A stretch of 4,476 nucleotides of DNA from a virus (Duplodnaviria > Heunggongvirae > Uroviricota > Caudoviricetes): IMG/VR virus record IMGVR_UViG_2703718848_000014, one strand, 5' to 3'. The notes beneath the pieces were generated by a model, which saw only the letters and a list, made by a program, of their open reading frames with translations, was not told the DNA's origin and ran no database searches. Positions within the stretch are counted from its first letter, which is position 1. Every line of letters starts with the position of its first letter. A program made the position numbers and the translations under genes. Shown piece by piece: positions 33-4,123 of the stretch.

Positions 33-1196
33 TTACACATCATTAGTACCTTCCTTATTTTTTGACTGGGACAAATTTGGGACCGATGGGTTCAGGATCG
101 AGTCTATTTGCCGTGCGTGTTCGGTAAGGTGATTAGGTGCAAGGTGAGCATATCGACGAACCATTTCGATAGACTCCCAGCCTCCCATTTCCTGTAACAC
201 TGACAACGGGACTCCGGCTTGAACCAGCCAACTTGCCCAGGTGTGTCTCAAGTCGTGAAATCTGAAATCATCAATACCAGCCCGTCTCAGCGCCGCTTTC
301 CAGGCTGTGTTTGCGTCATACCGCATCTTCCTTACTGTTGGCGCTTTCGTTCCGTCTGGTTTGGTACAGCTTTCCTTGTACACAAATACCCAACGGTGAT
401 GATTCCCGATTTGTTTTTTCAAAACGCGACATGCAGTATCATTCAGCGCAACGCCGATTGCGCGGTTTGATTTACTCTCTTCCGGGTTTATCCATGCCAC
501 CCGGCGCTGCATATCTATTTGTTGCCATTCAAGGTTGATGATGTTCGAGCGTCTTAAGCCTGTTGCCAGTGCAAATTCAACAACAGACTTTAATGGCTCC
601 GGACATTCATCAATCAGCCTTTGTGCTTCATGGGGCTCCAGCCAGCGGATCCGTTTATTCTTTGGTTGAGGCACTTTAATAATTGGTGCCTTATCCAGCA
701 TTTTCCATTCACGCTCTGCGGCTCTTAGTAGGGCCTTTATAAATGAAAGATGCGTAGCCTTCGTTGCAACGGACGCTGGTTTTGGCGTGTATTCTGGAAC
801 AGGTTTCCCTTTTTTTCTGCATGCTTCTGCCCTGAGTTTCCAGTTTTCCTCATGACGCCGGTTCGTCATTTTCTGCATTGCTGAATAAATTTTTGATTCA
901 GTAATGTCTCTTAGTTGCATTCCTGCGAAATGTTGAAGCCAGAATCCGATCCGGCTTTTGTCATCGTCCAGTGATTTTTTATGTGCTTTCTCTTCAAGCC
1001 ACCTGACACATGCTTCCTCGAACGTTATATCAGGTATTTCACCAAGTTTACTGACCCGCCATGCTTCAGCCTTTAGCTTGTCATGGAGTTCTGTCGCCTG
1101 CCTTTTGTCCTTTGTTCCAAGAGACTGTTTAAATCTTTTACCGTTCGGCAATGTGAAACTGGCGTACCATATTTCACCTCTGCGGAAGAGTGACAT
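33..1196 (-). CDS. int: phage tyrosine integrase (site-specific recombinase), P22/DLP12-like, 387 aa
   Basis: ORF begins [41 protein letters not shown], which I recognise as the P22-family Int N-terminus. C-terminal catalytic signature is present: HDLRHT (H-x-x-R box) and RRYAHL (catalytic Tyr). SD-like GAGGAAAG lies 5 nt upstream of the ATG at 1196. Position next to a tRNA 3' end fits an attL-side integrase. Confidence 0.95.
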
Positions 1197-1423
1197 TTTC
1201 TTTCCTCTGTTATGCCATCACCCGCGCTCACCTGGACAGTATGCAGCGGAGACTGAAGAGCCGCAATGCAGGCTTGTCGTGTTGTGAGGTAAGGAGATTT
1301 ATTCTTAGTGGGATCTTTGCGTGTTGCCTGAAGACGCCCTGTGCGTATCCAGTTAATAGCAGTCGGTCTGGATATCTTGAGAAAATGACAGGCCTCATCG
1401 AGTGTGAGGCTGTATGGCTCCAT
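1073..1423 (-). CDS. xis: excisionase / recombination directionality factor (helix-turn-helix), 116 aa
   Basis: Start taken at the internal ATG (1421-1423) of the 144-aa ORF, giving [31 protein letters not shown], a typical N-terminal HTH of phage excisionases. Strong SD AAGAGGTGA precedes this ATG at good spacing. The ATG overlaps the stop of the upstream ORF (TAATG). The 3' end overlaps the int start by 124 nt in another frame, as in lambdoid xis-int pairs. Confidence 0.8.
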
Positions 1424-1680
1424 TATTTCACCTCTTGCTGTGACATTGTTGAAAAACGGATACCAGCTCGTTGCTGCCAGACGATCCAACCGAGAGTCAT
1501 ATCCCATGCCATGTATTCATTATCGCCGTTTTTTGCTCTCCGACGATCGACTGTTTTACCGAAACGCTTTTCCATAAATAATTCATAGGCTGCGCGTTCA
1601 TCTGGCTCAACTTCCAGAGATGCCAGTGCAATAAAACTCAATGCTCTGCACTTTATTCCGTGCGCGCTCAAGCAGTGCAT
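1423..1680 (-). CDS. small hypothetical phage protein (ea-region), about 85 aa; N-terminus uncertain, possibly frameshifted
   Basis: Open frame whose stop overlaps the xis start (TAATG), so at least its C-terminal two-thirds (...PDERAAYELFMEKRFGKTVDRRRAKNGDNEYMAWDMTLGWIVWQQRAGIRF...) is very likely translated. The ATG at 1680 has no SD. A well-placed SD plus an ATGA stop/start overlap with the upstream gene occurs instead at 1702 in a different frame (see findings). Confidence 0.5.
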   Translation of the reverse strand: MHCLSAHGIKCRALSFIALASLEVEPDERAAYELFMEKRFGKTVDRRRAKNGDNEYMAWDMTLGWIVWQQRAGIRFSTMSQQEVK

Positions 1681-1698
1681 GGTAGTTAATTTCGGTTG

Positions 1699-2577
1699 TC
1701 ATACCCCTACCTCTTCGAATTCCAATTTCAATTGATCACCCCAGATTTCACATGACTCTGAACACGAACCGGTATCGAATCGCCTGGCCTGTACCATCGC
1801 CTGATACAAATTTCTGTAGTCGCTGTTGGCAGACATTCTGGCAATTCCGTCAAGCGTCAGGTGACCACGGTACATAATGTCTTTACCTGTTCTGCGATGA
1901 CCATCCCTGACGTGTTTGCCTGTAACCAGCTCATTAAAAACTCGCATCAGACCTGGTTCGTCTTTACATGCAAGCCCCAGCTTTTGCGTTGACTTTTTGA
2001 TGCAGAAAACACAGTTCCCGAGATGCTCCGGGATTTGCAAATCAAAAGGTTGTTTTCGCCACCACCGGATAACATCCGACTTATCAAAATCTGACAGCTC
2101 GGCAAGATACCGGACGCCCGATTTCGGTTTCAGCCTACGGGGTTCGTCTGCACGAATACCCAGCCATGTGATGTAATTACCTCGCCCGAAATGGTTATCG
2201 CAGTATTTCGTGAAAGGGATGAGTTTTAGCCTGTCAGTACAGAACGCGCCGCCGATGTATGGCGTGCCGTACTTTTTAACCATGTCCATAAACGGTTTAA
2301 GCACCGGCATTCGTGTCTGAATATCCTTTGGCTCCCATTCTGTATAACCATTTGGCTGCCCAAGCTCAGGATTTATATCGACCTGTAACACAGTTAGTGG
2401 TATGTCCCAGAACTTTACAACCTCCCGGATAAAGCGGTATGTCAGCGGATGTTCGCAACCGGTATCCATAAAGATATAGCAGACGTTATTGCCAGCCTTT
2501 CTTTGTTCTTCCATCAGGTGAACAAGATATGCGGATGTTCTCCCGCCAGAAAAACTAACTACATGAGTTATGCACAT
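1699..2577 (-). CDS. PAPS-reductase-like / PP-loop ATP pyrophosphatase family protein (phage-type, Cys-rich C-terminus), about 292 aa
   Basis: N-terminus MCITHVVSFSGGRTSAYL carries the PP-loop motif (SGGxxS) just after the first beta-strand, as in the PAPS reductase/DndC/QueC superfamily. The C-terminal part has paired cysteines (NCVFC, CSESC) compatible with a metal or Fe-S site. Start chosen at ATG 2575-2577, which overlaps the HD gene stop by 10 nt. The longer ORF-track start at 2694 lies deep inside the HD gene without an SD. Confidence 0.8.
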   Translation of the reverse strand: MCITHVVSFSGGRTSAYLVHLMEEQRKAGNNVCYIFMDTGCEHPLTYRFIREVVKFWDIPLTVLQVDINPELGQPNGYTEWEPKDIQTRMPVLKPFMDMVKKYGTPYIGGAFCTDRLKLIPFTKYCDNHFGRGNYITWLGIRADEPRRLKPKSGVRYLAELSDFDKSDVIRWWRKQPFDLQIPEHLGNCVFCIKKSTQKLGLACKDEPGLMRVFNELVTGKHVRDGHRRTGKDIMYRGHLTLDGIARMSANSDYRNLYQAMVQARRFDTGSCSESCEIWGDQLKLEFEEVGV

Positions 2578-3104
2578 TTGCGTAATTCCGATAACTCGTT
2601 GAAGCGTTCCATAAACATCCCGTAGGCATGGCCCGGTGCCAGTGGAATAACTTTGAACATCTCTGTTGCCGGGATACCTTCCAGTACAGGCCATAAAGAG
2701 CCATCATCAAGCCCGAGATCACGGCGTTCGGTTGCCAGCATAATGAGATCGGCATATTTCACGGGCGTGCTCATAACCGGGGGTAACCCGTATTTCTCAC
2801 GGATTACGGCGTCTATTTTTTCTTCCATCCGTTTATAGCCAGGAAGAAGGCGTTTCAGTTGCGCGGGGATGTCCTGACAATACGCTTCTGTTGCATCATG
2901 CATTAACGCTTCAAAGGCGAACTCTGGCGCCACAAGTTGACTGCACAGAACGGAATGCTGCGCCACGCTGTAAAAATCCGGCAAGTGTCCCGCGAAGCGG
3001 CAGATATTTGAAAGCGCACCGGCGATATCCTCGATATAAATATCGTCAATGGTGGAGTTGATATAATTGAACTTCTTACCGGTAAGAGTCTGGATAAAAC
3101 TCAT
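2568..3104 (-). CDS. HD-domain phosphohydrolase, YfbR-like (5'-deoxynucleotidase family), 178 aa
   Basis: Motifs SVAQHS (first His) and LMHDATEAYCQDIP (HD dyad) match the spacing and pattern recalled for E. coli YfbR (…SEHS…YHDASEVLTGDLP…). Strong SD AAGGAG lies 8 nt upstream of the ATG at 3102-3104. It is the first gene of the tightly coupled leftward block. Confidence 0.8.
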   Translation of the reverse strand: MSFIQTLTGKKFNYINSTIDDIYIEDIAGALSNICRFAGHLPDFYSVAQHSVLCSQLVAPEFAFEALMHDATEAYCQDIPAQLKRLLPGYKRMEEKIDAVIREKYGLPPVMSTPVKYADLIMLATERRDLGLDDGSLWPVLEGIPATEMFKVIPLAPGHAYGMFMERFNELSELRKCA

Positions 3105-3261
3105 CGTTAGTTCTCCTTAATTGGTGCGCTGCACCGCACGATTTTTGGTTGCACGAATCCCTCGCCATAAGGCGATTAAAAGTTTTGGTTTCGTTTCAGT
3201 AAATGCCCCATCCAGAGGCACTTAGTGCAACGGGCGGCTGCCATCGCCAGTTATTTTCCCC

Positions 3262-3346
3262 ACTCAATTGAAAGCGCGTTCCGGAGGTTTTGGACTTAAC
3301 GAACTGGCACTTAATGACAAGGGACAGAACGCGCTTTCAGTTGAGT
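3262..3346. repeat. inverted repeat: 20-bp arms (3262-3281 and 3327-3346) separated by 45 bp
   Basis: Left arm ACTCAATTGAAAGCGCGTTC; right arm GAACGCGCTTTCAGTTGAGT. 19 of 20 positions are Watson-Crick complementary. The single exception is a T/G pair that would be a G-U wobble in a plus-strand RNA but an A-C mismatch in a minus-strand RNA. Confidence 0.6.
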
Positions 3347-3492
3347 AAAAAGGTGGCTATTCATCAGAACATTGTCGCCTTCATTAGGTTTATCTGTTGA
3401 AGATCTGTAAGCCGCTTATAAATAAGTAGATATAAGATATTAGGAAAAGAAGAAGGACGTTATAGTTTTATTTGTGATGTGCAAAGTATATT

Positions 3493-3516
3493 TGAATAAA
3501 ACCCGCCCAGCGGGTT
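3493..3516 (-). terminator. rho-independent terminator for the AT-rich gene
   Basis: On the minus strand, 10 nt after the TAA stop of the 198-aa ORF: stem AACCCGC, loop TGG, stem GCGGGTT, immediately followed by TTATTCA (T-rich tail). Confidence 0.6.
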
Positions 3517-3526
3517 CTAAAGTGTT

Positions 3527-4123
3527 TTAATGATTGTCGTGATAATTAATTGGCTCATCATTTTTTTTGTCTGGCATAGTTATGGACCACTTTATATTCT
3601 TTAGGCTGTTATGTTTTTTATTGACCTTAAGCTCTCTCTTTGCTTCAGAGATAATATCGTCTAGTAATACTTTTAATTTATCAAGTCTTGACTTGTGGGC
3701 ATCTATCAACTCTATACTATCAAACTCCCATTGTATAAATAGATTTTCTTCATTTTCAATGAATGAACGGATTTTATCCCCACACTCTTCTGTTAAGAAT
3801 AATGAAGATAGCTCACCTATTCTACTGAGTTTTTCAAGCTCATTAGAGAAAGATTTGCTAAGGATTTCATTTTCTTCTTTTGATTTGTAACTAAAGTAGG
3901 TTGGGAATTGTGAGGTGTGATGTAACTCCTGTTTATACCAATAGTCAGCTGTGTTTTTTAGAAGATAAACACAGTCAACTAATTGCGTATACAAATCTAT
4001 TCTTTTGTCCCACCATTTTTCTTTATAATAACGGCCGAGTGCATATCGCGCAGTTAAGTAAGCTGCGATTGAGCCTGTAACAAGTCCGATAATTACCTTT
4101 GATATAAGGTCATGCCAATCCAT
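3527..4123 (-). CDS. hypothetical membrane-anchored protein, 198 aa, in AT-rich cassette (moron-like); function unknown, candidate exclusion/defence protein
   Basis: Long ORF in a region of markedly lower GC than the flanking phage genes (judged by eye at roughly one-third GC versus about half). N-terminus MDWHDLISKVIIGLVTGSIAAYLTARYAL followed by GRYYKEKWWDKR is a single predicted TM helix with a positive flank. The remainder is K/E/Y/W-rich and I recognise no family. Weak SD AGGGAAAA is 5 nt upstream of the ATG; its own terminator follows. Confidence 0.75.
   Translation of the reverse strand: MDWHDLISKVIIGLVTGSIAAYLTARYALGRYYKEKWWDKRIDLYTQLVDCVYLLKNTADYWYKQELHHTSQFPTYFSYKSKEENEILSKSFSNELEKLSRIGELSSLFLTEECGDKIRSFIENEENLFIQWEFDSIELIDAHKSRLDKLKVLLDDIISEAKRELKVNKKHNSLKNIKWSITMPDKKNDEPINYHDNH

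Follow-up and report, generated by a model that had tools for sequence, protein, structure and literature searches.

The window analysed here is the whole 4,476-nucleotide (nt) stretch taken from a tailed-phage record (IMG/VR record IMGVR_UViG_2703718848_000014; Caudoviricetes), in which every open reading frame (ORF) backed by a Pfam, NCBIfam or PHROG match or by homology to a known gene lies on the minus strand. Its subject is a pair of overlapping genes between positions 1699 and 3104, one encoding an HD-type protein and the other a PP-loop protein resembling phosphoadenosine phosphosulfate (PAPS) reductases. A first-pass annotation described the pair as having no characterised function and not being a known system, which overlooks that the two genes are those of YfdR and of phage lambda NinC. 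Both are already named and annotated, and their arrangement is a common mosaic variant, already present in the annotation of hundreds of E. coli genomes. The features that bear directly on the pair are the following, with protein lengths in amino acids (aa):

1423-1680, minus strand: 85-aa ORF, a chimeric yfdT remnant (YfdT homology; PHROG 660)
1690-2579, minus strand: ninC cassette (blastn homology to ninC of Stx/PA2-type phages)
1699-2577, minus strand: ninC orthologue, PP-loop PAPS-reductase-like protein of 292 aa (lambda NinC homology)
2568-2577, minus strand: 10-nt overlap junction ATGTGCATAA (read from the sequence)
2568-3104, minus strand: yfdR orthologue, HD-type protein of 178 aa (K-12 YfdR homology)
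3105-3209, minus strand: yfdR upstream leader (homology with SfIV, K-12 and E. coli 357900)

The yfdR and ninC orthologues

The HD gene (2568-3104) encodes a 178-aa protein with the C-terminal end ...LRKCA and a TAA stop at 2570-2568. It is identical to YfdR of E. coli K-12 (b2361, from the cryptic prophage CPS-53) at 154 of 178 positions (87%) without gaps, it matches PHROG 318 (E=1.7e-101), and its close copies are named 'yfdR: 5'-deoxynucleotidase' in RefSeq. The uncharacterised protein Atu1052 (Protein Data Bank entry 2GZ4) is matched by sequence (E=2.3e-13), with the HD residues of the two proteins aligned, and is also the clear fold match (TM 0.73) of the AlphaFold2 model (pLDDT 89.5), which in addition shows weak matches to YfbR, HDDC2 and OxsA. 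Among 22 homologues H50, H69 and D119 are invariant, and conservation of D70 and E73 is 90% or higher. The first-pass annotation had called the protein an HD phosphohydrolase of the YfbR type; its HD nature is borne out by these matches, whereas the YfbR label fits loosely, as the YfbR-like family PF12917 scored 17.7 bits (below its cut-off of 25.9, and over residues 60-104 only) and the Foldseek matches to the YfbR structures 2par and 2pau were weak (E about 0.9-2.7, TM 0.42). The HD_3-type Pfam match that had been expected was not obtained, and no HD model of either Pfam or NCBIfam scored above its cut-off on this protein; its HD identity is therefore taken from YfdR orthology together with the fold match, and it is a member of the HD superfamily in the YfdR/Atu1052 branch.

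The orthologues of the window protein comprise K-12 YfdR, SfIV gp32, SfV orf30 and the ST64B Sb35-type 'HD family hydrolase'. K-12 YfdR has the same length of 178 aa, the same HD residues, the same operon place toward xis-int and the same overlap at an embedded ATG; the loci differ in that the window has ninC in place of yfdS, a low-GC insert in place of yfdQ/yfdP, and a truncated yfdT. The K-12 protein was reported to be a weak 5'-deoxynucleotidase, with a nucleotide affinity far below that of YfbR, and to bind domain I of DnaA via DnaA Phe46, and multicopy yfdR, in combination with yfdQ plus yfdS or yfdT, inhibited replication initiation (PMC4776307).

The PAPS-like gene begins at a homology-supported ATG at 2577-2575 (MCITHVVSFSGGRTS...), stops at 1699 and encodes 292 aa. 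A longer mechanical ORF from 2694 (331 aa) was rejected as the gene, since this extension is without homology support, every homologue including lambda NinC begins at the MxxxVVSFSGG position, and the RefSeq E. coli gene spans the same 879 nt. The protein shares 79% identity with NinC of phage lambda (lambdap64, 290 aa) over 285 aa and matches the lambda NinC family in PHROG (424/33262, E about 2e-90), and the same gene is annotated NinC in Stx phages. Its PP-loop, Cys-rich nature, as proposed initially, was confirmed by the family alignment (27-30 homologues), in which the PP-loop S8-x-S-G-G-R-x-S-A16, the D38-T-G40 motif and six cysteines (C113, C126, C189, C192, C272 and C276) are invariant. 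Lambda NinC shares this PP-loop and has each of the six cysteines. The six-cysteine set probably forms an Fe-S or persulfide site.

The window and lambda genes differ in their placement. In lambda, ninC lies within the nin region (between the replication genes and Q) in a rightward operon, between ninB and ninD, and overlaps ninB by ATGA, whereas in the window, as in Stx/PA2 phages, ninC is close to int; here it shares 10 nt with yfdR, and its first three codons (MCI) are remodelled by the junction. As the position of NinC varies across the family, location in the nin region is not truly a defining feature.

A match to the PAPS reductase family PF01507 (PAPS_reduct) had been expected and was obtained above its cut-off (E=1.5e-8; 35.3 bits versus 22.5), and the top fold matches of NinC are adenosine phosphosulfate (APS) and PAPS reductases, the matches being enriched in Fe-S sulfur-transfer PP-loop enzymes. 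These results would suit a genuine PAPS/APS reductase, encoded by an auxiliary metabolic gene that enhances sulfur assimilation, in line with its name in the databases. However, the Pfam match is confined to residues 5-71, and the NCBIfam equivalog model for CysH, PRK02090, gave 20.5 bits against a cut-off of 154. The catalytic motif of CysH at the C-terminus is ECG(L/I)H, and this motif is not in the NinC sequence; both the arrangement of its cysteines and its C-terminal half are peculiar to the NinC family. The reductase reading is thus extremely unlikely and was rejected.

An annotation matter was noted for the homologue in the Stx-type phage PA2. The RefSeq gene for its 'phosphoadenosine phosphosulfate reductase' spans 4011-4826, whereas the homology-supported extent is 4011-4891; the annotated start lies ~60 nt downstream of the homology-supported ATG near 4889 (MSTHHVVSFSGG), so that the annotated PA2 protein is without the PP-loop N-terminus.

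A fixed junction with exchangeable cassettes

The coordinates of the two genes and their overlap of 10 nt, as first annotated, were borne out by direct reading of the sequence. The reverse complement of 2568-2577 is exactly ATGTGCATAA; yfdR ends with ...AAA TGT GCA TAA, and ninC begins at the ATG embedded in this end (MCITHVVSFSGG...). An overlap of 10 nt at this place also joins yfdR to yfdS in K-12 and in Shigella phage SfIV, and the yfdR-yfdS junctions of CPS-53, SfIV, SfV and SfII share with the window the length of the overlap, its position in yfdR and the downstream ATG. They differ from it in the allele, which is ATGCGCATGA, and in the downstream product, which is a DUF551 protein of 116-229 aa and not NinC. 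Since yfdS uses the same overlap as ninC, the overlap is a property of the yfdR 3' end and not of the pair.

The same was found in IMG/VR at large, where the downstream ORF starts at the embedded ATG in 142 of 142 loci with a complete yfdR, a count that is approximate because some contigs were entered twice. About 77 of these loci carry ATGTGCATAA and continue into MCITHVVS of NinC, about 64 carry ATGCGCATGA and continue into MRMNVFEM of the YfdS family (116-229 aa), and a single locus has the hybrid allele ATGCGCATAA, which continues into MRITHVVS. Being present in all IMG/VR yfdR loci examined, the junction is not a chance feature. The embedded ATG would serve as a fixed docking point, occupied by yfdS in most prophages and by ninC in a minority, and it is because the yfdR 3' end carries this ATG that yfdR and ninC are adjacent.

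Coupled translation had been deduced from the overlap in the first-pass annotation. The overlap itself stands, and coupling of yfdR with the next gene is plausible: the sequence before the ninC ATG offers only a weak Shine-Dalgarno match (GGAA), which makes termination-reinitiation plausible for whichever cassette is present. Ribosomes finishing yfdR would probably re-initiate at the embedded ATG, leading to coupled expression of the resident cassette. As the overlap serves any cassette, it is no sign of a shared reaction.

A further variant of the slot was seen in a 294-aa protein that combines PF04448 (DUF551, YfdS-type) with PF01507 and is 86% identical to NinC of the window over 88% of its length. 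From its domain content and sequence, this protein looks like the product of natural recombination between yfdS and ninC in this slot.

The exchange of cassettes can be read from the mosaic structure of the window, the breakpoints of which fall at gene edges. By blastn, positions 1-1632 are 98.6% identical to SfIV, positions 1690-2579 are 89.3% identical to ninC of PA2, with edges almost exactly at the gene ends, and positions 2570-3209 are 82-83% identical to yfdR of SfIV and K-12. The homology to SfIV and K-12 breaks at 1632. On this left side the insertion of ninC cost the locus yfdS and the 32 initial codons of yfdT, and the 85-aa ORF at 1423-1680 is what remains of the latter. Its C-terminal 69 aa (residues 17-85) correspond to YfdT residues 33-101 with 91% identity, whereas its N-terminal 16 residues are of foreign origin and arose at the left breakpoint. 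On the other side, the yfdR leader (3105-3209) has been kept with yfdR across lineages, and the homology to SfIV, K-12 and E. coli 357900 ends at 3209. In E. coli CX21 and ~15 other strains the same prophage segment is found with yfdS where the window has ninC. Relative to the order yfdQ-yfdR-yfdS-yfdT-xis-int, the window thus retains xis, int and the yfdT remnant, has ninC in place of yfdS, and has no yfdQ.

This replacement raises the question of whether NinC, in the 'YfdS slot', could stand in for YfdS as the partner of YfdR in modulating the host replication initiator, the locus being a variant of the yfdQRST set. The location of ninC exactly at the usual yfdS place, with the C-terminal remnant of yfdT after it, fits such a role. 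However, NinC is a PP-loop enzyme and YfdS a DUF551 protein, and the two are unrelated; yfdQ, which is needed for the phenotype, is absent from the window, where a low-GC insert takes over at the end of homology at 3209; and NinC is widespread in phages without yfdQRST genes. Substitution for YfdS is therefore very improbable as the role of NinC.

The first-pass annotation had also proposed joint function of the two enzymes, and had named a failure of the genes to co-occur in related phages as grounds for abandoning the idea. Among 5426 complete E. coli genomes, yfdR is present in 2965 and ninC of the window type in 428, and the two are adjacent in 282. Hence ninC adjoins yfdR in ~9.5% of the yfdR-bearing genomes, and yfdR adjoins ninC in ~66% of the genomes bearing this ninC, a third of them being without an adjacent yfdR. 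The adjacent pair was found in none of 50,697 phage records, although a NinC homologue is present in 588 of them, which include those of Vibrio (341), Stx (62) and Salmonella phages (62; P22-like nin regions and virulent Chi-like phages) as well as lambda; in lambda, P22-like, Stx, Chi-like and Vibrio phages NinC occurs without YfdR. Co-occurrence thus fails from both sides.

The genes next to ninC are correspondingly varied. In lambda it is preceded by ninB, in PA2 by an unrelated 147-aa gene, and in Chi and the Vibrio phages examined it lies beside unrelated genes. A scan of one genome per species gave 80 loci, the top 11 of which had 79% identity, resembled lambda contamination and were excluded; a YfdR-family gene was located within 5 kb of ninC at one of the 80 loci, 1.5 kb away and not adjacent. 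The flanking genes at 40 of these diverse loci fell into 49 clusters, with a single-stranded DNA-binding protein gene upstream in 8 loci and a 148-aa Cys-rich ORF downstream in 10, and an HD gene adjoined ninC at none of these 40 loci. Among the best 80 NinC loci of IMG/VR, yfdR is upstream in 63, the unrelated PA2 gp25 in 10 and neither in 6, whereas the best 80 YfdR loci have yfdS downstream in 53 and ninC in 15, the rest being mostly length variants of the YfdS family. The alleles of the two genes are also discordant: copies of NinC that are 99-100% identical to that of the window adjoin YfdR alleles of only 87-88% identity, and where other contigs carry the alleles nearest to YfdR of the window (98%), these adjoin yfdS. 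The separate occurrence of the genes and the discordance of their alleles indicate that each is free of the other and that they have recombined independently.

Two side observations concern the distribution of ninC. First, 72 of the 459 places at which window-type ninC was found in complete E. coli genomes are plasmid-borne. Examples such as NZ_CP159120.1 and NZ_CP020522.1 are ~93-100 kb in size, one with an Ea22-like neighbour; they are probably phage-plasmids with ninC but no yfdR. Second, contigs assigned to Pseudomonas, Oceanobacillus, Neobacillus, Shewanella, Kitasatospora, Bradyrhizobium and other unrelated species contain a NinC match of the same 79% identity as that of lambda (residues 2-287); several of them are of low coverage and ~48 kb long, and these contigs look like lambda DNA contamination of public assemblies.

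The case for a dedicated module has to be weighed against this record. In such a module, with nucleotides or nucleic acid as its target, NinC would adenylate or thiolate the substrate, and YfdR would clear the nucleotide by-product or competing deoxynucleoside monophosphates. The overlap, with the coupled expression it implies, speaks for such a module, as do the upstream position of yfdR in 63 of the 80 closest IMG/VR NinC loci, with three downstream contexts, and the adjacency of the pair in 282 of 428 E. coli genomes with window-type ninC. On the other hand, yfdR is joined to yfdS by the same overlap, ~90% of the yfdR-bearing genomes have no adjacent ninC, NinC occurs without a YfdR-family gene in all the phage groups named above and in diverse genomes, the alleles are discordant, and NinC-family proteins are fused with DNA methyltransferases but never with HD domains. 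A dedicated two-enzyme module is therefore improbable, and joint function of the pair was not borne out.

The likely explanation, and the one favoured here, is that the pair consists of two independent and previously known accessory genes that phage mosaicism has set side by side at a fixed yfdR junction, with a plausible anti-restriction role for NinC alone. The identities of the genes, their junction, the exchange of cassettes and the mutual independence of the two are shown, whereas the coupling of translation, the binding of Fe-S and the action of NinC on DNA against restriction are inferred.

What NinC may do

A profile search of 1.84 billion representatives showed the NinC family to be compact: 369 of them match at E<=1e-30. 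Seven of these are longer than 450 aa, and six of the seven carry a DNA N6-adenine methyltransferase domain, which is a C-terminal PF05869 domain in three, an N-terminal PF05869 domain in two and a PF02086 domain in one; an HD domain was found in none of the seven. As the fusions involve two Pfam families and either terminus, several independent fusion events are indicated.

One fusion of this kind has been studied in the context of phage defence. The protein p0018 of Vibrio phage 44E38.1, in which a PAPS domain is combined with Dam, is 55% identical to NinC of the window and 59% identical to lambda NinC over ~283 aa. When p0018 and p0019 were moved into a sensitive phage, it was able to infect a host carrying Dnd, and Piel et al. 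concluded in their preprint that the anti-Dnd system was 'related at least in part' to the PAPS domain (10.1101/2021.05.05.442762); a later paper cites this result with the same meaning. The 'Dam methyltransferase with PAPS reductase domain' resembles the window protein in its N-terminal 280 aa, including the CxxC and CSESCE motifs, and in being a phage early or accessory gene. It differs from it in its C-terminal Dam domain, as NinC of the window has PF01507 only within its 292 aa, and the anti-Dnd effect was shown for p0018 with p0019 in a Vibrio podovirus and not for a stand-alone NinC. The methyltransferase fusions, together with a fusion protein implicated in escape from Dnd, make NinC alone a reasonable candidate for DNA modification or anti-restriction.

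Among defence-system models, PADLOC gave SspD as the best match to NinC (E=1.3e-14; residues 5-152 versus positions 2-125 of the 277-position model), followed by BrxP (2.8e-4) and DndC (about 5e-3); the NCBIfam scan of NinC yielded no DndC match. Like these PP-loop components of phosphorothioation systems, NinC has a PP-loop ATP-pyrophosphatase core and is Cys-rich. Unlike them, it matches in the N-terminal half only, and neither a partner NTPase (DndD/SspC/BrxC) nor a DNA-recognition subunit, which phosphorothioation is held to require (PMC12914056), was found in the window, while the flanks of NinC homologues consist of diverse small phage genes. In view of the half-length match and the absence of partner genes, NinC does not appear to be a member of the SspD, DndC or BrxP systems. 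The term 'PAPS reductase' does not occur in the Dnd reappraisal by the Aravind group.

It might be supposed instead that NinC acts on RNA, as a modifier similar to tRNA thiolases or lysidine synthases, adjusting host tRNAs or protecting them, for example from anticodon nucleases. However, the tRNA enzymes align with the generic N-terminal core only (about 150-165 residues), the fusions of NinC are repeatedly with DNA adenine methyltransferases, the best defence-system match, SspD, is a DNA phosphorothioation enzyme, and escape from DNA restriction by Dnd has been tied to the Vibrio homologue. An RNA substrate is accordingly quite unlikely.

The best working model, based on homology and fusion patterns, is that NinC alone is a DNA-directed modification or anti-restriction enzyme. 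NinC would adenylate a nucleic-acid substrate, most likely phage DNA, leading to a sulfur-type modification; alternatively, it may plug into the host Dnd/Ssp machinery, and by either route the phage would escape modification-dependent restriction. A more specific proposal is that stand-alone NinC, including that of lambda, is a DNA sulfur or backbone modification enzyme, which either works without partners or hijacks the host proteins DndD/E or SspB/C, and which shields phage DNA from restriction that depends on phosphorothioates or on other modifications, its expression being wired to yfdR by the overlap in this lineage. In this detailed form the proposal is tentative and rather doubtful, and weaker still is the additional suggestion that YfdR might assist NinC by trimming nucleotide pools. 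The earlier idea of an anti-defence or modification function thus gains ground for NinC by itself, from its 55% identity with p0018 and from the methyltransferase fusions, and loses it for the pair.

Several observations weigh against regarding the two genes as independent and NinC as an anti-restriction protein. The presence of yfdR immediately upstream in 63 of the 80 closest IMG/VR NinC loci, across three different downstream contexts, means that the linkage of yfdR and ninC in this lineage exceeds random placement, and it could reflect selection for the pair and not a recombination hotspot alone. The partner NTPase that known phosphorothioation requires (PMC12914056) is absent from the window, so that NinC would have to use host Dnd/Ssp proteins or a different chemistry. 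The Vibrio transfer moved two genes and displaced methylase genes, leaving the role of the PAPS domain alone unproven (10.1101/2021.05.05.442762). Finally, lambda NinC is non-essential and is not known to have a phenotype, and the literature found on it consists of genome notes and essentiality tables, in which no function is given. The enrichment of yfdR upstream of this ninC lineage is real, and it is most simply explained by the docking junction.

Prophage setting and wider meaning

The pair was first placed in a P22-like phage, a setting that did not hold up and was rejected. The window belongs to an e14/SfV-like lambdoid prophage integrated at thrW, beside proA, with an immunity region of the e14 type (ymfK/ymfT/ymfL), a LexA-type repressor and SfIV/SfV-like int-xis genes; its likeness to P22 is limited to the integrase region, at ~80% nucleotide identity. 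Here yfdR and ninC are both part of a short operon directed toward xis-int. The remaining features of the window are the following:

33-1196, minus strand: tyrosine integrase gene
about 1190-1507, minus strand: helix-turn-helix excisionase gene
3105-3526: non-coding stretch of 420 nt
3527-4123, minus strand: low-GC ORF of 198 aa (PHROG 17948)

The 198-aa ORF has a GC content of 0.31-0.35 and a hydrophobic N-terminal segment, and it matches PHROG 17948, of unknown function, with nothing found in Pfam, NCBIfam or PADLOC; PADLOC also returned no match for YfdR or the yfdT remnant. In sibling prophages this ORF is located directly downstream of the LexA-type repressor gene ymfK in the same orientation, which corresponds to the position of rexAB in lambda. 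By analogy of position, it is a candidate for an exclusion or defence moron expressed in lysogens.

Rfam and tRNA scans of the window gave no matches. Two structures were noted upstream of yfdR. A strong terminator-like hairpin at 3499-3520, right after the stop of the 198-aa ORF, is followed by a U-run (-13.6 kcal/mol, z=-4.1). An inverted repeat at 3262-3346, within the non-coding stretch, has arms of 20 nt (ACTCAATTGAAAGCGCGTTC / GAACGCGCTTTCAGTTGAGT) and a 45-nt spacer, with a predicted fold of -35.6 kcal/mol (z=-5.4) and no match to an Rfam family; it lies inside segment 3210-4420, which is without counterpart in the compared loci of SfIV, K-12 and E. coli 357900.

For the evolution of such prophages, the yfdR 3' end provides a clean example of a fixed junction, in which an embedded start lets yfdS and ninC be swapped and yet stay, plausibly, under translational coupling, and it illustrates how recombination at gene boundaries may keep new cargo expressed. 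For lambda NinC, the identity of 55-59% with p0018, the independent methyltransferase fusions and the SspD-like PP-loop core provide a concrete and cheaply testable hypothesis, namely that it may modify DNA or counteract modification-dependent restriction.

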